A DNA stretch of 64,000 nt from an uncultured Actinomycetes bacterium (GCA_963805545.1 CAWDUU010000009.1:321741-385740), one strand, 5' to 3'. Shown: positions 7,556-44,572, counted from the stretch's first letter. The notes: generated from the letters alone by a model not told the origin. Numbers and translations: made by a program.

Positions 7556-8746
7556 ATGGCGCGGCGGATGGATAGACGACGCTTTCTTGCGAGCACCGCT
7601 GCGGCGGGCGGCACGGTGCTCATCTCGGCCTGCGGCGGCGGATCGAGCTCCGGCGGCGGTGGCGGCGGCGCGAGCGCTGCCACGCACCCCGCGATCGGCA
7701 AGGAGCCCGGCAGCCTGAGCGTGTACGAGTGGCAGGGCTACGAGGCCGCCGGCACCAAGGCCCAGACGTACATGAAGGTCCCCGGCAAGTCGTACGTCGA
7801 CGAGTTCGGGGCGAAGAGCATCAACTACACGGCGTTCCAGTCCGACGACGCGGCGGTCGCCAAGGTGCTGAGCGGCGCCCAGTACGACCTGGCGCACCCG
7901 TGCATCTCGTACGTTCGCGACTGGGTGGAGAAGGGCCTCGTGCAGCCGTTCGACACGAGCCTGCTCACGAACTTCTCGGAGCTCGACCCCGAGGTGGTGA
8001 AGGCGGGCCAGGTCGACGGCAAGCAGTACTGGATCCCGTGGGACTCCGGCTACTCGAGCATCATGTACCGGACGGACATGATCGATCCGGCCGACGCAAA
8101 GAGCTGGAACCTCTTCTGGAACCCGAAGTACGCCGGGAAGATCTCGATGTGGGACGGGTTCACGACCCCGTTCGTCATCGCCGGCCTGGTGAACGGCGTG
8201 TCGAATCCGTACGACATGTCCGACGCCGAGATCGAGGCGGCGAAGCAGAAGCTGATCGAGCAGAAGAAGGTCAACAAGTTCTACTGGAAGCTGGAGTACG
8301 ACGACATGCAGCCGGCGTTCAAGTCGGGCGACATCTGGGTGACGTACGCCTGGCCGAACGACTACAACGACATGCTGTCTGCGGGGCTGAAGACGGGCTG
8401 GATGAACCCGACGGAAGGCCAGCTGGCGTGGTACTGCGGGTTCATCATGCTGAAGAACTCGCAGAACTACTACCACTGCCACAAGTACGTCGACTCGTTC
8501 ATCGGCCACGACGCCTGCGTCGACCTCTTCAACGCCTTCGTGTACGCGAGCGCGAACACGACGGTGAAGAAGAGCGAGCTCCAGATCAAGGGCGCCAAGT
8601 ACCCGAAGGCCTATGCGCTCCCGGACGCGGCCGATGCGCTCCGGATCGGCGACCCCAACCGGCTCGCCGCGCCTGTCCACCTCGAGCAGTTCATCCCGCA
8701 GCGGGCCGCCTACCAGGCGGCCTGGGAAGAGGTCAAGGCCAGCTAG
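7556..8746 (+). CDS. ABC transporter substrate-binding protein, PotD/PotF (polyamine)-like, Tat/lipoprotein signal
   Basis: The ATG at 7556 is preceded by AAGGAGG. The N-terminus is 'MARRMDRRRFLASTAAAGGTVLISAC'. The body resembles spermidine/putrescine-binding proteins ('YEWQGYE…WIPWDSGYSSIMYRTD'). Confidence 0.8.
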   Translation: MARRMDRRRFLASTAAAGGTVLISACGGGSSSGGGGGGASAATHPAIGKEPGSLSVYEWQGYEAAGTKAQTYMKVPGKSYVDEFGAKSINYTAFQSDDAAVAKVLSGAQYDLAHPCISYVRDWVEKGLVQPFDTSLLTNFSELDPEVVKAGQVDGKQYWIPWDSGYSSIMYRTDMIDPADAKSWNLFWNPKYAGKISMWDGFTTPFVIAGLVNGVSNPYDMSDAEIEAAKQKLIEQKKVNKFYWKLEYDDMQPAFKSGDIWVTYAWPNDYNDMLSAGLKTGWMNPTEGQLAWYCGFIMLKNSQNYYHCHKYVDSFIGHDACVDLFNAFVYASANTTVKKSELQIKGAKYPKAYALPDAADALRIGDPNRLAAPVHLEQFIPQRAAYQAAWEEVKAS

Positions 8747-8764
8747 ATGGTCTCGTAGGGCGCT

Positions 8765-9688
8765 ATGAGCGAGGCGCACACTGCCGGGCGCCGGCGGGGG
8801 TTCCCCCTCCGGCGCCCGTGGCGTCCCGGCCGGGCGTGGCTGTCGGTGCCGGTGACGCTCTATCTGCTGGCGGGGCTGATCGTGCCGATCATCCTGATCG
8901 CGCTCTACAGCGTCCACCTGCTGACGAACCTGATCTTCCCGCCGGCGAAGTTCTCGGTCGACACGTGGAAGGGCTTCCTGCCCTACCTGCACGACGGCAC
9001 GTCGGTGTACTTCGACCGGTTCAAGACCTCGATGGCGATCACGCTCATCGTCTCGACGGTCGCCGTGCTCGCCGCCTACCCGCTCGCCTTCTACCTGGCG
9101 TTCGTCGCCCACCGGCGCCGCTACACGCTCCTGCTCGTGCTGCTCGCCCCGTTCTTCGTGAGCTACCTGTTGCGCGTGTATGCGTGGACCGTGATGCTCT
9201 CGTCCGACGGCACGATCAACTCGATCCTGGTCGAGCTGGGCCGGGCGAAGGGGCACCCCGTCGAGTGGCTCTTCCACTCCAAGTTCGCGATCGGGCTCGT
9301 GCTCGCGTACTCGTGGATCCCGTTCGTGGCCCTCCCGATCTTCGTCGTTCTCGAGAACCTCGACAAGCGCGTGCTCGAGGCGGCCCAGGACCTCGGCGCC
9401 AACAGGTTCATGACGTTCCTGAAGGTGACGCTCCCGCTCAGCCTGCCCGGCGTGATCGCCGCGTTCGTCTTCGTGCTCATCCCGACGACCGGCGAGTTCG
9501 TGGCGCCGTCGCTCGTCGGCGGCTCCGACGACAGCATGTTCGGCAACTTCATCCAGGACTCGTTCGTGAACACGACCGACTGGGCGCTGGGCGCGGTGAT
9601 GGCGATGTGGCTCATGGCGATCGTCGTCGTCCTGATCGCCGTGTCGGCGAAGTACCTCACCGCCGACCTGCGGGGGCCGGCGCGGTGA
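8765..9688 (+). CDS. ABC transporter permease (PotB-like)
   Basis: 307-aa ORF with about 6 TM segments and the EAA-loop region 'LEAAQDLGANRFMTFLKVTLPLSLPG'. Confidence 0.85.
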   Translation: MSEAHTAGRRRGFPLRRPWRPGRAWLSVPVTLYLLAGLIVPIILIALYSVHLLTNLIFPPAKFSVDTWKGFLPYLHDGTSVYFDRFKTSMAITLIVSTVAVLAAYPLAFYLAFVAHRRRYTLLLVLLAPFFVSYLLRVYAWTVMLSSDGTINSILVELGRAKGHPVEWLFHSKFAIGLVLAYSWIPFVALPIFVVLENLDKRVLEAAQDLGANRFMTFLKVTLPLSLPGVIAAFVFVLIPTTGEFVAPSLVGGSDDSMFGNFIQDSFVNTTDWALGAVMAMWLMAIVVVLIAVSAKYLTADLRGPAR

Positions 9689-10497
9689 GCGCGACCGCCG
9701 GACGCATCGCCCGCGGGATCCTGAGCGGCTACTTCCTGCTCATGGTCGTGTTCCTGTACGCGCCCGTCGTCGTGCTGGTCATCTTCTCGTTCAACGACAA
9801 CACGACGCCGACCCTGCCGCTGGCCGGCTTCACGACCCACTGGTACCACATCGCGCTCGGGAACGACCTCCTGCTCGCCGCGGTCAAGCGCAGCGCGGCC
9901 ATCGCGGCGCTGAACGGGTTCGCGGCCACGCTCCTCGCCATCCTGGCGGCGCTCGCGCTCTCGGCGCCGCGGGTGTTCGCCCGCCCCGCCGTGACCGCGC
10001 TCGTCATGCTGCCGCTGGTCGTGCCGTACGTCGTCCTCGGCGTCGGGATGCTGGTGCTCCTGAAGACGATCGGGCTCGACCAGTCGCTCTCGGCCGTGCT
10101 CTTCGTGCACGTCGTCGTCTCGGTGCCCTACGGCGTGCTCGTGATCCTGCCGCGGCTCCAGACGCTCGACCCCGCGATCCAGGAGGCGGCACGCGACCTG
10201 GGTGCCGGCGAGATCGCCGCCTTCGTGCGCGTCACCCTGCCGCTCATCCTGCCGGCGATCCTGTCGTCCTACCTGATCGCCTTCACGATCTCGTTCGACG
10301 AGTACGCCATCGCCTCGTTCCTCGTCCCGCCCGGCCACGACACCTTCCCGATCTTCCTCTACTCGAACGCGCGCACCCCGGCCCTGCGCCCGCAGACCGT
10401 CGCCATCGCCGGCCTCGTGATCGCCATATCGCTGGCGCTTGTCGTCGCCGCGGAGATCGGCCGGCGGACGGCGGAGCGGCGCCTGGAGGGCGTCTGA
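9685..10497 (+). CDS. ABC transporter permease (PotC-like)
   Basis: This is the tail of ORF 7729..10497. The GTG at 9685 overlaps the upstream TGA. It has 'QEAARDLGAGEIAAFVRVTLPLILPA' and multiple TM segments. Confidence 0.85.
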   Translation: MSATAGRIARGILSGYFLLMVVFLYAPVVVLVIFSFNDNTTPTLPLAGFTTHWYHIALGNDLLLAAVKRSAAIAALNGFAATLLAILAALALSAPRVFARPAVTALVMLPLVVPYVVLGVGMLVLLKTIGLDQSLSAVLFVHVVVSVPYGVLVILPRLQTLDPAIQEAARDLGAGEIAAFVRVTLPLILPAILSSYLIAFTISFDEYAIASFLVPPGHDTFPIFLYSNARTPALRPQTVAIAGLVIAISLALVVAAEIGRRTAERRLEGV

Positions 10498-14465: not shown

Positions 14466-14551
<86 letters not shown>

Positions 14552-38979: not shown

Positions 38980-39396
38980 ATGCGAAGGATGATCCTCGCG
39001 GTCGCCGTCGTGGCGGCGTCCGGGTGCGGCGGAGGCGGAGCGGCCGCCTCGCCACGGCTGCCGCATGCGCTGGGAACCCAGCTGGCAGCCCAGGCAGAGG
39101 CCGTCGCGGCCAGCCTTGGACGCGGGGACGAGTGTGGCGCGGCGGGTGAGGCGAAACGCCTCCAGCAGATGGTCGCCCAGGCAGTGGCGGCCGGCCGGGT
39201 GCCGGCGGGCTTGCGGCAGCCGCTCTCGAGCTCGGCCGGCGCGCTTGCGGGCGAGATCGCCTGCACCCCCGCACCGCCCGCCGGAGGTCCGCCCGGCCAG
39301 GATGGCCCGGCCAAGGACAAGGGCAACGACAAGGGTCACGGTCCCGGCCACGGGAACGGCAAGGGCCACGACCACGGCGGCGGAGGCAAGGATTAG
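38980..39396 (+). CDS. Lipoprotein with C-terminal His/Gly/Lys-rich tail
   Basis: It has the lipobox 'MRRMILAVAVVAASGC|GGGG'. The tail is 'KDKGNDKGHGPGHGNGKGHDHGGGGKD'. Confidence 0.6.
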   Translation: MRRMILAVAVVAASGCGGGGAAASPRLPHALGTQLAAQAEAVAASLGRGDECGAAGEAKRLQQMVAQAVAAGRVPAGLRQPLSSSAGALAGEIACTPAPPAGGPPGQDGPAKDKGNDKGHGPGHGNGKGHDHGGGGKD

Positions 39397-40465
39397 CGCA
39401 CGCACGGCACTGGGGCGGTTCCGCGTCGACGGCACGCTCGGACGGGGCGGGATGGCCGTGGTCTACATGGCCTTCGACACGGAGCTCCACCGGCCGGTGG
39501 CGGTCAAGGTGCTGGCCGACCACGGCATCGAGGACGGCGCGTTCCGGGCCCGGTTCGCACGCGAGGCGCGGAGCGCCGCCCGGCTCAGCCACCCGAACAT
39601 CGTGCAGGTGTTCGACATCGGCGAGGACGGCGGCCGGCCGTTCATCGTCATGGAGTACGTGGAGGGCGAGACGCTGGCCGACATCCTCCACCGCGAGCGG
39701 CACCTGGGGCCCGAGCGGGTGGCGGAGATCGCCCGCCAGTGCTGCGCCGGCCTGGCGTGCGCCCACGCGGCCGGGCTCGTCCACCGTGACATCAAGCCGC
39801 ACAACCTGCTCGTCACTCCCGATGAGACGATCAAGATCGCCGACTTCGGCATCGCCCACGCGCTCGACCAGACGCGGCTCACGCTGACCGGAAGCATCGT
39901 CGGCACGGCGCGCTACCTGGCTCCCGAGCAGACCGACGGCAGGGCCGTCACCACCGCCGCTGACGTCTACGCGCTCGGCGTCGTCATGTACGAGCTCCTC
40001 ACCGGCCGCCCGCCGCACCCGGGCGACTCGCTGCCCGAGCTCGTGGCGGCGAAGCGCACGAAGGCCGTGAAGCCGCCGCGGGCGCTGCGGCGCGAGATAC
40101 CGGTCGAGCTCGACGCGGCGGTGCTGGCCTGCCTCGATCGCGAGCCCGGGGCCCGGCCGACGGCCGCGGCGCTCGCCGAGCGCCTGGCGGGCGGCCCGGC
40201 CGCGGTGCTCCCGAGCGACGCGGACACGGCCCGCACCACGGTGCACGCGGGCTCGTCCCGGCGCACGTTCCGGGCCCGGCGGCGGCGGGGCCGGGTGGCC
40301 GCCGGAGCGAGCGTGCTCGCGGCCGCGGCCGTCGTGGCGCTGCTCGCGGGGTCGCTCGGCGGCGGCTCCTCGCCGCGTCCGCACCCGGTCCGGACGCCGT
40401 CGGGATCGACGCCGGGCGAGCACGCGCACAACCTGGCCCACTGGATCCGCGGCCACACCGGCTGA
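39302..40465 (+). CDS. Hanks-type Ser/Thr protein kinase with C-terminal TM anchor
   Basis: It has 'LGRGGMAVVYMA…VAVKVL', 'HRDIKPHNLL', 'DFGIA' and 'GTARYLAPEQ', then a Pro/Arg-rich linker and the TM segment 'VAAGASVLAAAAVVALLAG'. The start is uncertain. The first ATG in frame (39302) overlaps the lipoprotein gene by 95 nt. Confidence 0.85.
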   Translation: MARPRTRATTRVTVPATGTARATTTAAEARISARTALGRFRVDGTLGRGGMAVVYMAFDTELHRPVAVKVLADHGIEDGAFRARFAREARSAARLSHPNIVQVFDIGEDGGRPFIVMEYVEGETLADILHRERHLGPERVAEIARQCCAGLACAHAAGLVHRDIKPHNLLVTPDETIKIADFGIAHALDQTRLTLTGSIVGTARYLAPEQTDGRAVTTAADVYALGVVMYELLTGRPPHPGDSLPELVAAKRTKAVKPPRALRREIPVELDAAVLACLDREPGARPTAAALAERLAGGPAAVLPSDADTARTTVHAGSSRRTFRARRRRGRVAAGASVLAAAAVVALLAGSLGGGSSPRPHPVRTPSGSTPGEHAHNLAHWIRGHTG

Positions 40466-40614: not shown

Positions 40615-41100
40615 ATGACGCGTACTCATCTGTCGCGCCTCGGCGCGGTCGCCGTGACCGGGCTCCTGGTCGCCGGCGTCGCCGCCTACGGCGCATGGTC
40701 CGTGAGCGGCAGCGGCACCGGAGCGGCCTCCGCCGCGACGGCCGCGAATCTCACCCTCTCGCCCGGCACGCCGGCGAGCGCGCTCTACCCCAGCGGCACC
40801 GCCGACGTGGCGACCACCATCGCCAATGACAACCCCTTCCCGGTGCACCTGTCCGCGATCTCACTGGACGCAGGTCAGGGAACGGACGGCTTTGCCGAGG
40901 ACGCCGGCCACAGCGGCTGCGACCTGAGCACGCTCTCGTTCGATGCCCAGACGAACGGCGGCTCCGGCTGGGACGTTCCGGCGAACGACACCCTCGACGT
41001 CGATCTCGACGACGCCATCGCCATGAGCGGAGCCGCCGACGACGCCTGCCAGGGCGCCTCGTTCACGCTCTACCTGACCGCGACCGCCGCGAGCAGCTAG
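40615..41100 (+). CDS. Small secreted TasA/camelysin-like protein (paralogue 1)
   Basis: The ATG follows AAGAGGA. The N-terminal anchor/signal is 'LGAVAVTGLLVAGVAAYGAWSVSGSGTGAASA'. The body has 'ALYPSGTADVATTIANDNPFPV'. The C-terminal part has '…HSGC…DDACQGASFTLYLTATA'. Confidence 0.6.
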   Translation: MTRTHLSRLGAVAVTGLLVAGVAAYGAWSVSGSGTGAASAATAANLTLSPGTPASALYPSGTADVATTIANDNPFPVHLSAISLDAGQGTDGFAEDAGHSGCDLSTLSFDAQTNGGSGWDVPANDTLDVDLDDAIAMSGAADDACQGASFTLYLTATAASS

Positions 41101-41110
41101 GCCTGACGCC

Positions 41111-43370
41111 GTGCTTCCGGCCCGCCTGAGGGGCGTGGCCCGCCCCCGATTCCTCGTCGCCGTCGCCGTGGCCCTCGTGGCCGCGGCGACGCCGGCGGTG
41201 GCATCGTGGACCGTTCCCGCGAGCGGGAGCGGCGGGGCCCAGGCCAGCCCCGACTTCCACGCCCCGAGCGTGAACAGCGCGACGATCGCCCCTGCCGGCA
41301 TGACTGCGGCGGGCGGCGGCGTGCGGGCGGGCGGCCAGTTCGTCGTCTACGCGAACGTCACCGACCCGGGCGGGACGGGCGTCGCGTCGGCGAGTGCCGA
41401 TGTGTCGGGCATCGCGGCCGGTGCGGCCGCGGTGGCACTGAGCCCGTGCGTGTCCTCGTGCACGATCGGGTCGACGACGTACACCTGGTCGAGTTCGCCG
41501 ATCCCGGCCGACGCGGACCTGACCGAGGGCGCGAAGTCGTTCTCGGTGTGGGGCACCGACAATGCGTCGAACACGGGGTCGCCGAAGGCCTTCTCGGTCA
41601 CGGCCGACAACACCGACCCGACCGCGTCGGCGGCCGTCGTCGTCGCCTCGGCCACCTCCGGCGTGGGCGTCGTCCGTGAAGGCGGCACCTACGCCGTCTA
41701 CGCGTCGGCGTCCGACGCGGGCTCCCCGGCCACCGGGATCGCCGCCGTGACCGCCGACGTGAGCGCGCTCAACGCCGGCCTCGCCGCCCTGGCGCTCCCC
41801 AAGTGCACCAGCAGCTGCAAGGTCGGAGGCGTCACCTACGGCTACAAGAGCGCTGTGACGACGGCCGACTCCTCCGTCTCCGAGGGCGCATTCTCGTTCA
41901 CGGCGACGGCGACCGACAAGGCGGGCAACACGGGATCGTTCACGGCGGCCGGGACCGTCGACGACACCGCCCCGACCGTGAGCGCCGCCCAGATCGTGTC
42001 GTCGAGCACGCCCGGCTTCGTAAGGCCGGGGGGCACGTACATCGTGTACGCCGCCGTCTCCGACGACGGTTCGCCCGCGAGCGGCATCGCGTCGGTCAAG
42101 GCGGACGTCAGCGCGCTGACCGCGGGCCAGACGGCGCTGTCACTGAGCGCGTGCAGCTCGGGCTGCACGGTCGCCGGCGTCACCTACGGGTACAAGAGCA
42201 CGAGCAAGACCGCGGACGCGCTCGGCCCGGGCCAGGTCGGCTTCACGGTCACGGCCACGGACAAGGCCTCCGGAACGGTGACGGCCACGTCGTCCGCGAC
42301 GGTCGACGACGCCGCGCCGGTGGTGACCGAGGTCGCGGTCGCGACGACGACCACCGGCGTCCCGGGATGGCTGCGCAAGAGCGGCGCCTACAACGTGTAC
42401 GCCAACGCGACCGACGCTGGAAGCGGCGTCTCCACGGTGAAGGCAAACGTCTCGTCGATCACGAGCGGCCAGACGGCGCTCACGCTCTCGGCCTGCACCA
42501 CGGGCTGTACGGTCGGCGGAGTCACCTACGCGTACAAGAGCGGCAACAAGACGGCGGCGTCGACGATCGCAGCCGGCCCCGCCGCGTTCACGGTCACGGC
42601 GACCGACAGGGTCGGCAATGCCTCGACCGCCGCGGGCGGCGCCACCGTCGACAACACCGCTCCGCTGATCTCGGCGGCGGCGATCGCGACCGTGGCCACC
42701 GGCGTGCCGGGCTACGTCGGCCAGGGCCGCGACTACGTCGTCTACGGCGACGCGGACGACGCCGAGAGCGGCATCCTCAAGCTGACCGGGAAGGTGAGCA
42801 GCCTGACCACCGGCCAGACCGCAATTCCGCTGGCCGCCTGCTCGCCGGCGTGCACGGCGGGCGGCGTCTCGCACGGGTACGCGAGCGCGACGACCACGGT
42901 CAAGGCCACGCTCAGCGCGGGCTCGAAGACGTACACGCTCACCGCGACCGATCTCGCCGGGAACACCAAGACGACCACCAACCAGACGGTCGTCGTCGAC
43001 AACACCGCGCCGGCCGTCTCCATCTCGTTCCCCACGGCCGGCTACGCCGGCGGCTGGGCGGCCGGATGCTCGACGGCGGGCGTCGACGACGTCTGCGGCA
43101 CGGCGACCGACGCGAGCGCCGGGGTGGCGAAGGTGCAGGTGAGCTTCCGCCAGGCGGGCGCGCCGAGCCTGTACTGGGATCCGCTCCCCGCCACGTTCTC
43201 GTCGGCGGGCGAGGTGCTCGCAGACGCGACGCCCGCGCTGCCGGCGTGGTCGTTCCCGATGGCAGGAATCGGCCTTCGCGAACGGCGCGGCATACACGCT
43301 CAGGGCGCTCGTCACCGACGCCGCCGGGAACACCGCCACGACGTCCACGACCTTCACGTTCTCGCCCTAG
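41111..43370 (+). pseudogene. Large secreted protein: TasA-type N-terminal motif, five tandem Ig-like modules and a distinct C-terminal Ig-like domain; +1 frame break near 43260-43272
   Basis: The GTG start is 10 nt after the upstream stop. The N-terminus is 'FLVAVAVALVAAATPAVASWTVPASGSGGAQAS'. Modules are delimited by 'D(N/D)TAP'. The last 32 aa ('AFANGAAYTLRALVTDAAGNTATTSTTFTFSP*') lie in the +1 frame and end at TAG 43368-43370. Confidence 0.7.
41252..42997 (+). repeat. Five tandem coding repeats of ~345-354 bp (115-118 aa Ig-like modules)
   Basis: Module starts are at about 41252, 41606, 41960, 42305 and 42650. Each contains 'G.Y.VYA…D.GS…V.A.VS…G…L..C(x3)C.VGGVTY.YKS…F.VTATD..GN'. Confidence 0.8.
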
Positions 43371-43372
43371 CC

Positions 43373-43814
43373 ATGCGCCTCCTTGCTCCCATCCTGGCCC
43401 TCGTCGCCGCTTCGGCCGCCGCCGCGGCGGTGACGCATGCCCGCCAGCCGGCGCCGCGCGGCGACGCGGAGCTCGTCGCGTCGGTCAAGAAGCGGTTCGG
43501 GATCGCCTCCGTCCCCGTGACGGGGCTCTATCCCGGCGCGACCCGCGCGCTCACGGTCAAGGTCGAAGAACGTCTACGCGTTCCCGATCAAGGTGGGGCC
43601 GGTCAAGGCGAAGGTGAAGTCGAGCAACCGCCAGGGCTGCACCGGCGCCGCCGCCAACCTCGCCGTGGCCTCCGCGGGTACCCGCAGCCTTCCGATCCGG
43701 GCGCACAGGACGAAGACCGTCGTGCTCCGGGTGACCATGCCGCGCACCGTCGCGAACGCCTGCCAGGGAGCGAGGTTCTCGCTCTCGTTCAGCGCCCGCG
43801 CGACGCGGGGCTAG
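43373..43814 (+). pseudogene. Small secreted TasA/camelysin-like protein (paralogue 2) with a +1 frame break near 43562-43568
   Basis: The ATG is 2 nt after the upstream TAG. It has the signal 'MRLLAPILALVAASAAAAAV'. '…GLYPGATRALTVKV' is in frame 43373, and 'KNVYAFPIKVGPVKAKV…RQGC…ANACQGARFSLSFSARATRG*' is in frame 43593. Confidence 0.6.
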
Positions 43815-44572
43815 CGGGGGCGCAGCGCGGCGACGCCGTCGCGGAGCGCGCGCTCGAAGACCCAGACGTCGGCGAAGGCCAGGAGCTGGAACCCCTGGTC
43901 GGCCGCCGCGGCGCCGGCCTCGGCCGACGCGACCAGCTGACCGAGCGGCGTGTCGTGCCGGCGGCACGCGTCCAGGAGCCGGTCGACCGCCTCGAGATAG
44001 CGGGGGTGCTCGAGCTCGCCCGGACAGCCGAGCGACAGCGACAGGTCGAACTGACCAACCCAGGCGGCGTCGATGCCGGGCACCGCGAGGATCTCGTCGG
44101 CGTGCTCGACCCCGGCCGCCGACTCGATCTGGGCGACCACGACGGTGTCGCGGTTGGCGCGCTCGGCCGCCGCCGCCGGCCCGGCGGTCAGCTCGTCGGA
44201 CATGATCACGCCGAAGCCGCGCCTGCCGAGCGGCGGGTAGCGGGCCGACTCGACCAGGAGCCGGGCCTCGTCCGCCGACTCCACCATCGGCGCCATGACG
44301 CCGCGCGACCCGGCGTCGAGCGCGGTCGCCACCAGCGGATACTGGGCCCTGACCACGCGCGTCACCGTGTGGATGCCCGTGTCTCTCCCCGCGGCCAGCA
44401 CCCGCCGCAGCGACCCGGCGTCCCAGGCGGTGTGCTCGAGGTCGAAGAGCGCGAAGTCGACGCCGGCCGCCGCCAGGATCCGCATCACCCGCGGCGTGTC
44501 GAACTCGAAGAGCATGCAGCCCACGGCCACGCCGCGCTCGGCGATGGCTCGGAAGATGGCGTTCTCGGTCAT
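43811..44572 (-). CDS. HpcH/HpaI-family aldolase (2-keto-3-deoxy-acid aldolase)
   Basis: 253-aa ORF with 'VGCMLFEFDTPRVMRILAAAGVDFALFDLEHTAW', 'VTRVV…', 'APMVESADEARLLV' and 'VVVAQIESAAGV'. Confidence 0.85.
   Translation of the reverse strand: MTENAIFRAIAERGVAVGCMLFEFDTPRVMRILAAAGVDFALFDLEHTAWDAGSLRRVLAAGRDTGIHTVTRVVRAQYPLVATALDAGSRGVMAPMVESADEARLLVESARYPPLGRRGFGVIMSDELTAGPAAAAERANRDTVVVAQIESAAGVEHADEILAVPGIDAAWVGQFDLSLSLGCPGELEHPRYLEAVDRLLDACRRHDTPLGQLVASAEAGAAAADQGFQLLAFADVWVFERALRDGVAALRPR

Follow-up and report, generated by a model that had tools for sequence, protein, structure and literature searches.

A conserved actinobacterial unit of small exported proteins and a large Ig-repeat partner, with possible TasA-like donor-strand assembly

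Positions 40615-43814 of a 64,000-nucleotide (nt) stretch of DNA from an uncultured Actinomycetes bacterium (GCA_963805545.1, CAWDUU010000009.1:321741-385740; this whole stretch is called the window below) code for three proteins, P1, P2, and P3. They raise the question of whether small secreted proteins resembling TasA/camelysin could, together with a large immunoglobulin (Ig)-like partner, form a surface fiber in an actinobacterium. TasA-type donor-strand fibers structure biofilms in Firmicutes and several archaeal lineages, and to our knowledge no TasA-fiber equivalent has been characterized in Actinomycetota beyond automatic "TasA family" labels. We found that the three genes form a conserved unit, that its small proteins are probably distant relations of the actinobacterial TasA family, and that a Sec-exported, chaperone-free assembly of the TasA/TapA type is a plausible reading of the locus, to which we give slightly less than an even chance. 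The window has a GC content of ~72%, and its closest named relatives are metagenome-assembled genomes (MAGs) of Gaiellales.

A conserved three-gene unit

The genes are packed on the plus strand with intergenic gaps of 10 nt (P1-P2) and 2 nt (P2-P3), a spacing that had been predicted and that agreed with our check of the stops and starts. P1 (40615..41100) is an intact open reading frame (ORF) of 161 codons, from the ATG at 40615 to a stop ending at 41100. P2 (41111..43370) runs from a GTG at 41111 to a TAG at 43368-43370, and P3 (43373..43814) from an ATG at 43373 to a stop at 43812-43814; they code for ~752 and 146 amino acids (aa), respectively, once a frame break is removed from each (at 43269 and 43564, discussed below). 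Each protein has one N-terminal hydrophobic segment and no other transmembrane segment, from which we can predict that all three are exported. As for anchors, neither an L[PA]x[TSA]G motif nor a C-terminal hydrophobic segment was found in P1, P2, or P3.

By sequence comparison, P1 and P3 are true paralogs, as the original prediction had held from shared motifs, all of which (LYPSG/LYPG, N..FP(V/I), xxGC, and the C-terminal ACQGA(S/R)F(T/S)L) are present. BLASTP (E 1e-9, 24% identity over 106 aa), the hhalign comparison of P3 with the P1 family (95.9%, E 6e-9), and the family hidden Markov model (HMM) agree, with the P1 profile finding intact P3 orthologs over their full length at ~25 loci (E 1e-6 to 1e-11). 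The P1 family alignment, A1, has invariant G34, P59, N71, C102, W119, C145, and Q146, which include two conserved Cys (C102 and C145), and the protein ends in the strand ACQGASFTLYL. In the AlphaFold2 (AF2) model of P1, made with 41 homologs, an all-beta core reaches a predicted local distance difference test (pLDDT) score of ~88, and confidence is low for the signal helix and residues 32-43; as modeled, P1 would be a small beta-sandwich protein with a core of ~115 aa. The W-T-x-x-G-S-G segment that follows the signal peptide of P1 is missing from P3, whose predicted signal peptide is of an ordinary kind (…VTHA↓RQ).

The middle gene codes, as expected, for a large Ig-repeat protein, with six Ig-like domains. 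P2 lies above the gathering score for Pfam bacterial Ig-like models (Big_13, 6.6e-14 and 52.7 bits, cutoff 27; Big_3_3, 1.8e-9 and 37.9 bits, cutoff 27; Big_3_2, 23.8 bits, cutoff 23.3), the best Pfam stretches falling at aa 592-642, and it also has OmpL47-type barrel matches in NCBIfam. The predicted signal peptide and N-terminal segment SWTVPASGSGGAQAS (41111..41245) are followed by five tandem Ig-like repeats of ~115 aa each (41246..42997), with boundaries at D[ND]T[AD]P and a CxxxC pair per repeat (aa 113, 232, 348, 462, and 577), and by a sixth, distinct C-terminal Ig-like domain of the Big_13/Big_3_3 type (42998..43370), which holds the frame break at 43269. Three ORFs on the minus strand within P2 (41347-41688, 41842-42183, and 42742-43041; third-position GC [GC3] of 0.93-0.97) are most likely artifacts of the Ala/Thr/Gly-rich repeat coding sequence and not genes.

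P1 has 166 word-indexed relatives, all annotated as hypothetical and all without Pfam domains, and in a full HMMER scan its profile found 3,422 representatives of 50%-identity clusters at an E value of ≤1e-3. Relatives are encoded at 205 loci in GTDB species genomes; 78 of these were fetched (from Gaiellales, Solirubrobacterales, Nocardioidaceae, Actinoplanes, Microbacteriaceae, and Mycobacteriales), and neighborhoods were compared across 85 loci. P1-P2-P3 is a genuine unit of three genes for exported proteins and is conserved, with synteny in ~27 Gaiellales loci. The complete MAG chromosomes OY969568.1 and OY969804.1 carry the trio, and the module is also present in cultured strains, among them Actinoplanes sp. 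TFC3, Nocardioides sp. InS609-2, and Symbioplanes lichenis TISTR 2343. Outside Gaiellales, a second small paralog, P0, lies upstream of P1 and has the N terminus …GGAAFAYWTxxGSGTGxAxTGT; its family comprises at least 2,483 clusters and is homologous to that of P1 (hhalign of A1 against the P0 family profile, A2, 99.8%, E 1e-29). A large protein of 400-2,000 aa almost always follows P1, often with an ATGA overlap, and has the N terminus …AATAWAYWSAGSxPGGxGAAAA…VNQGATPTA in front of a variable body (FN3-like, LamG, or Ig).

The gene order is P1-Large-P3 in Gaiellales, as in the window, where P2 is the large protein, P1-P3-Large in Gaiellaceae, and P0-(motif-less small paralog)-P1-Large in other Actinomycetota. 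Despite the permuted order, the set is constant: one or two small subunits bearing an N-terminal motif, one small subunit without it, and one large protein bearing it. Clustering of the neighbors revealed no other constant partner, that is, no sortase, chaperone, ATPase, or peptidase. With no name in Pfam or NCBIfam, the module appears to be a large unnamed family.

Some genomes depart from the single copy. Two tandem copies of P0-mid-P1-Large, where mid is the motif-less small paralog, occur within ~7-10 kb at three loci (L040, L044, and L050; L056 is also listed), and tandem copies within one genome each carry a different large protein. Four representatives of 560-610 aa (P0351, P0361, P0368, and P0369) have the P1 domain at their N terminus and may be natural P1-Large fusions or read-through artifacts at the ATGA overlap. 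A LuxR-type regulator of ~675 aa with a C-terminal helix-turn-helix (…SPRTVESHRAHITSKLG) is found near the module, between −7 and +9 kb, in 11 non-Gaiellales loci, for example downstream of it at 11484-13262 of L042.

The N-terminal motif and remote likeness to TasA

When the families are aligned on Trp, P0, P1, and the large proteins have in common the motif A(-4)-aromatic(-3)-A(-2)-[A/Y/S](-1)-W(0)-[T/S](+1), after which the sequence becomes Gly rich. Conservation is 94 to 100% for A(-4), 72 to 92% for A(-2), and 92 to 100% for W(0), position -3 is occupied by Y, F, or W, position -1 by A, Y, or S, and position +1 by T or S. The Gly residues at +4, +6, and +8 are near-invariant in P0 and P1, with W at 100%, G(+4) at 89%, G(+6) at 94%, and G(+8) at 72% in the P1 family and the same pattern in the P0 family. 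The predicted signal peptide of P1 covers aa 1-26 (40615..40692) and ends in an AxA-type site, A24-Y25-G26↓A27-W28 (family consensus, A(-4)-Y(-3)-A/G(-2)↓A/Y(-1)-W(0)). The segment left at the mature N terminus, AWSVSGSGTGAASAATAA (aa 27-44; 40693..40746), is a candidate donor strand or linker. In P2 the predicted cleavage is at A29-V30-A31↓S32-W33, and the segment behind it is P1-like.

A shared post-signal motif in P1 and P2 had been proposed as a noncanonical processing site. The position statistics confirm the sharing; the motif region itself reads as a canonical AxA signal-peptidase site, presumably cut between -2 and -1, an outcome that the original prediction had itself named as counting against it. 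An ordinary site of this kind would be open to cleavage by any type I signal peptidase, and with the predicted cut between -2 and -1, most of the conserved motif would remain on the mature protein. The register of cleavage, small-aromatic-A↓x-aromatic-polar, is the same as in TasA (G-T-W-A↓A-F-N-D), whose mature N terminus is A28, as checked in PDB entry 8AUR.

Searches of the 64-kb window for an S26B (SipW-type; TIGR02228) peptidase and for LepB were both empty, so the earlier remark that no SipW-type peptidase is in view holds. In Nocardioides sp. InS609-2 (L005; CP060034.1, 6284-15096), a complete SipW-type cluster lies directly upstream of P0-P1-Large, in the order TIGR04089 protein, sigpep_I_arch, PF12389/TIGR04088 "TasA family" protein, and second sigpep_I_arch, and the large protein of this module has 1,538 aa and a LamG domain. 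A dedicated peptidase does not seem to be a defining part of the module. A LepB-type S26A peptidase (SPSM … GDNRxxSxDSR) is encoded on the minus strand ~9 kb upstream of P1 in five Gaiellales-type loci only (L015, at 440-1060, L021, L022, L025, and L030), and this constant distance probably reflects incidental synteny.

The relationship with TasA was examined with a third profile, A3, built from PF12389-positive Nocardioidaceae "TasA family" proteins, and with a decoy set of 15,091 six-frame ORFs from the window and the 85 loci, which come from the same high-GC genomes and are matched in composition. Beyond its own family, the A3 HMM gave nine matches in this set (E 0.002-0.007), all nine of which belong to the superfamily described here. 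They include the C-terminal fragment of P3 in the window (43521-43811, E 0.004), which contains no signal peptide and aligns Cys on Cys, QG on QG, and last strand on last strand. In the reverse direction, the P3 HMM found PF12389 proteins at an E value of 0.0035 and A2 found 33 of 103 such proteins. The hhalign comparison of A2 with A3 (88%, E 3e-6) covers the end of the signal, AYWT, and the first strands, and that of A1 with A3 (55%) runs over the full length, with Cys on Cys, QG on QG, and both domain ends colinear. PF12389 itself matches 5 of the 36 P0 members at an E value of ≤0.01 (best, 8e-6), the match being confined to the N-terminal part of the profile in the P0 member listed, and TIGR04090 matches one of the 36 (E 0.004).

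What is shared with the PF12389 family is the signal and cleavage region, the L-x-P-G…N-x-N first strands, the Cys, and the last strand pair (…C-Q-G-A-x-F-x-L), and P1, P3, and P0 are short of ~50 central residues relative to it. In our view, P1, P3, and P0 are probably shortened proteins related very remotely to the actinobacterial TasA family, with conservation at the two ends of the domain. Neither A1 nor A3 profile searches found TasA among the PDB sequences, and against the single TasA sequence the P0 profile reached 2.7% in hhalign, with L-x-P-G…N alone in the aligned stretch.

A tentative donor-strand assembly and its alternatives

The donor strand of TasA is formed by residues 28-38, which directly follow the cleavage site, and the N terminus of TapA mimics this strand and nucleates fibers (PMC9674648). 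Archaeal tafi are made of tip, adaptor, core, and anchor subunits, in which unrelated proteins share just the N-terminal ~40 residues (PMC11821415), and archaeal bundling pili (ABP) are processed by a generic signal peptidase (PMC9245690). By analogy, we tentatively propose that a type I signal peptidase cleaves the proteins of the module at A-x-A, one residue ahead of the invariant Trp, and that the N-terminal segment of P1, once exposed, would enter the sandwich of the next subunit as a donor strand, giving a chaperone-free polymer or chain. P1 and P0, which have both segment and sandwich, would act as donors and acceptors alike. P2 and the other large proteins, with the segment and no P1-type sandwich, would donate only and could act as a nucleator or tip presenting the adhesive Ig array, the role that TapA plays for TasA. 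P3 and the mid paralog, with a sandwich and no segment, would accept only, as an end subunit at either the cap or the base. A general signal peptidase would suffice, and a dedicated SipW would not be needed.

This division into motif plus sandwich, motif only, and sandwich only, as known here from sequence and the monomer model, is compatible with a donor-strand mechanism. The locus had been proposed as a possible undescribed fiber or adhesin assembly system; the conserved unit stands, and it is the word fiber that we infer. A broader claim is possible, although we hold it with considerable doubt: the module could be the minimal form of an unrecognized, phylum-wide actinobacterial class of chaperone-free donor-strand fibers, with "mini-TasA" subunits of ~115 aa, a motif-less end subunit, a giant adhesin of interchangeable type (Ig, FN3, or LamG) docking via the shared strand, and no dedicated peptidase.

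Other known routes were considered and rejected. For a sortase-assembled pilus, the L[PA]x[TSA]G motif, a C-terminal transmembrane segment in P1, P2, or P3, and a conserved sortase neighbor are all missing; for a Tad/Flp pseudopilin or type IV prepilin, no G/xxxxE or G|F motif occurs in the N termini of the three proteins; and for Tat export, none of them has a twin Arg.

A number of results weigh against TasA-like assembly. P1 and repaired P3 have no match to PF12389 (Peptidase_M73) in Pfam, and P1, P2, and P3 have none to TIGR04088, TIGR04089, or TIGR04090, the NCBIfam SipW-signal and alternate-signal models, all at an E value of ≤1; among the 41 members of the P1 family, PF12389 matches one, at an E value of 0.12. 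These searches had been put forward as a check on P1 and P3, and by any curated definition P1, P3, and P0 are not TasA-family members. Compared by hhalign without signal and motif, the mature domains show no significant match (0.8% and 11%). In the structural check, the P1 monomer model retrieves generic Ig-like, MG, and PapD-like sandwiches in Foldseek (E ≥ 0.012), and a control AF2 model of A3 retrieves CanA, a TasA-superfamily cannula subunit, together with viral jelly rolls; the fold classes retrieved differ, and TasA is in neither top 50. The description of P1 and P3 as TasA/camelysin-like finds no backing in curated HMMs or, for P1, in Foldseek and has a weak but consistent link in the A3 profile and reverse searches. 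As to the motif, an HMM of its 20 residues in P0 and P1 gave no large protein at an E value of ≤1, and the likeness of P2 to P1 is weak as an HMM score, although the score distribution of the large proteins is enriched (4.4 bits for P2 and 12.3 bits for that of L013, where the background has its 99th percentile at 1.5 bits). Rich in Gly/Ser/Thr, the presumed donor segment does not show the alternating hydrophobic pattern of TasA (F29, I32, and F39), and its AF2 confidence is low (pLDDT < 50); a flexible or glycosylated linker would describe it just as well. A SipW-type peptidase lies within ±10 kb at 1 of the 85 loci, that of InS609-2 with its two copies. Last, the locus would be defunct in this organism if both of its frame breaks were real.

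Much of this could also be explained by a nonfilamentous surface or secreted complex, in which P2 is a functional Ig-repeat adhesin and P1 and P3 are small accessory subunits, acting as stabilizers, as partners for docking or wall binding, or as chaperones of secretion. The shared motif would then be a signal-peptidase c-region followed by a Ser/Thr/Gly linker, possibly O-glycosylated, as many actinobacterial exported proteins are. The ordinary AxA site, the composition and low modeled confidence of the segment, and the generic Ig-like matches of the P1 fold all suit such a complex, the large partner is as variable (Ig, FN3, or LamG; 400-2,000 aa) as modular adhesins are, and no assembly machinery is encoded nearby. 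However, a mere linker would not be expected to keep Trp and the Gly at +4, +6, and +8 near-invariant across three divergent protein classes, nor does this explanation account for a component logic kept across permuted gene orders or for the remote homology of the module to a fiber-forming family, and we consider it somewhat unlikely. A further departure would be to deny the homology altogether and to see in P1, P3, and P0 small secreted proteins, Ig-like and disulfide bonded, that make up an actinobacterial family of their own with another role (for example, enzyme inhibition, metal or ligand binding, or a spore or sheath component), whose matches to TasA profiles come from a shared style of signal peptide and an Ala/Thr/Gly-rich composition. 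The silence of the curated models, the mature-domain comparison, the profile searches that find no TasA among PDB sequences, and the differing fold classes fit this well, and the cross-family E values are all marginal, from 1e-3 to 1e-6 in small databases. Against it stand the 15,091 same-genome ORFs, of which A3 matched none outside the superfamily, the P3 match, which is C-terminal and signal free with Cys on Cys and QG on QG, the colinear matches at both domain ends, and the module that adjoins a SipW/TasA cluster in one genome. We judge this reading distinctly improbable.

The remaining alternative concerns this genome only, namely, that the frameshifts in P2 and P3 are real and mark a decaying gene pair in a nonfunctional module. 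Three-frame translation shows that the P2 frame is clean to ~43268 and then continues in the +1 frame to the TAG at 43368-43370 and that the P3 frame shifts near 43564. The original prediction had named one break, in P3, which stands, and the second one, in P2, is added here; the length of 750 aa assigned to P2 holds only once the latter is repaired. Our reference for both is L001, a contig 97% identical to the window whose P1 is 99% identical. In blastn alignments, the break at 43269 (plus strand) is a surplus T inside P2 (GGAATCGG in the window versus GGAACGG in L001) and that at 43564 (plus strand) is a surplus C inside P3 (GGTCGAAGAAC versus GGTGAAGAAC). In favor of decay, two single bases are inserted within 300 nt of each other, outside any long homopolymer, and both insertions truncate or change conserved C-terminal strands. 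Yet the genes are intact in L001, L003, and L006 (P2 orthologs of 752, 754, and 745 aa, respectively, and P3 orthologs of 146-148 aa), in many other relatives, and in all short-read MAG orthologs, and the codon bias (GC3, ~0.87-0.94) runs on across the breaks. The sibling long-read-style contigs L002, L007, and L012 have the same genes broken at other positions, and L002 has frame breaks in unrelated genes too. Further isolated single-base indels separate the window from L001 (44002, 38013, 38215, 46469, and 47880), some of them in G-runs, as at 44002, and some inside neighboring genes such as that of the HpcH/HpaI aldolase, which has one in a G-run. This pattern points to a noisy long-read assembly of the window, of L001, or of both. 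As close relatives are intact and other single-base indels occur in the window and in sibling Nanopore-style assemblies, both breaks are probably assembly errors, and we find real decay of the pair clearly unlikely.

Upstream of the donor-strand candidate, a Ser/Thr kinase and a lipoprotein had been noted. The kinase is confirmed, as the gene at 39449-40465, which codes for a C-terminal transmembrane segment, is 95% identical to a PF00069-annotated gene of L001; the small ORF at 38980-39396 has a signal peptide and Cys16 (…VVAASGC), which make a lipoprotein plausible. We rejected the kinase as a part of the module, since only the window and five close relatives have it next to P1, and L006 and L023 lack it. 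Promoter and terminator scans of the operon were uninformative. Elsewhere in the window, a tRNA-Leu(GAG) at 14466-14551 is the sole Rfam or ARAGORN match, and the GC content dips to 0.66 at 8001-10000, compared with ~0.72 elsewhere.

Members of the module number in the thousands among soil actinobacteria (Gaiellales, Solirubrobacterales, Nocardioidaceae, Actinoplanes, and Microbacteriaceae), and in them small subunits are combined with large adhesin-like proteins that vary greatly. Should the subunits polymerize, the module would provide a testable model for surface fibers and adhesion in abundant, mostly uncultured soil lineages, and a much smaller subunit would be added to the TasA superfamily. 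If they do not, this is still a large unnamed family deserving a family model, of modest interest.

Comparison with known systems

The tapA-sipW-tasA operon of Bacillus subtilis resembles the module in its secreted beta-rich subunit, the register of cleavage, and the conserved segment directly after the cleavage site, which is the donor strand in TasA. P2 parallels TapA as a larger accessory protein whose N terminus resembles the segment of the small subunit, and the order of L-x-P-G…N and then the C-terminal Q-G-x-x-x-f-x-f is that of TasA. Unlike TasA, with its ~230 aa, the mature domain here has ~115-130 aa and two conserved Cys, PF12389 and TIGR04088 do not match it, and Foldseek does not retrieve TasA. 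Neither the operon nor the window contains sipW; the partner, with its six Ig domains, is not related to TapA; and the module has an extra motif-less paralog, P3.

Closer in taxonomy are the actinobacterial "TasA family" proteins (PF12389, TIGR04088, and TIGR04089), which come from the same phylum and have in common with the module an N-terminal …G-x-F-A-Y-W-T…, two conserved Cys, a terminal Q-G strand, and reciprocal marginal HMM matches, besides lying physically adjacent to it in Nocardioides sp. InS609-2. These proteins, however, have ~200 aa, pass the curated models, lie beside S26B peptidases, and model as jelly rolls with CanA as the top match, whereas P1, P0, and P3 are shorter, fail the models, are linked to a peptidase in 1 of 85 loci, and have GSGxG after the Trp instead of D-D/E.

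The archaeal TasA-superfamily filaments (AbpA/AbpB, the tafi proteins TafA/C/E/F, threads, and cannulae) offer a parallel in logic, with chaperone-free extracellular assembly, which for the module is a proposal, several subunit types (core, tip/adaptor, and anchor), and unrelated proteins sharing the N-terminal segment alone; processing of ABP by a generic signal peptidase is what we propose for the module as well. They differ in that no direct sequence or fold match is detectable, that the hosts here are bacterial high-GC Gram-positives, and that tafi use Tat export, in contrast to Sec, with polymerization in our case a proposal. Chaperone-usher pili (Fim, Pap, Caf1, and Saf) likewise combine a tip adhesin and a terminating subunit with Ig-like subunits that bear an N-terminal extension, and the Caf1M:Caf1 and SafA/SafB complexes are among the weak Foldseek matches of P1. 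The module has no chaperone or usher and its hosts no outer membrane, and this likeness is one of logic and not of demonstrated homology. Among Ig-like surface proteins (Big_13, Big_3_3, and OmpL47 type), P2 fits in by its model matches and its tandem-repeat, adhesin-like architecture and is set apart by the lack of a wall or membrane anchor, the module-specific N-terminal segment, and a CxxxC in each repeat. What appears to be new here, judged by these analogies, is a TasA-superfamily-like logic in an unnamed family of much smaller subunits with modular giant partners.

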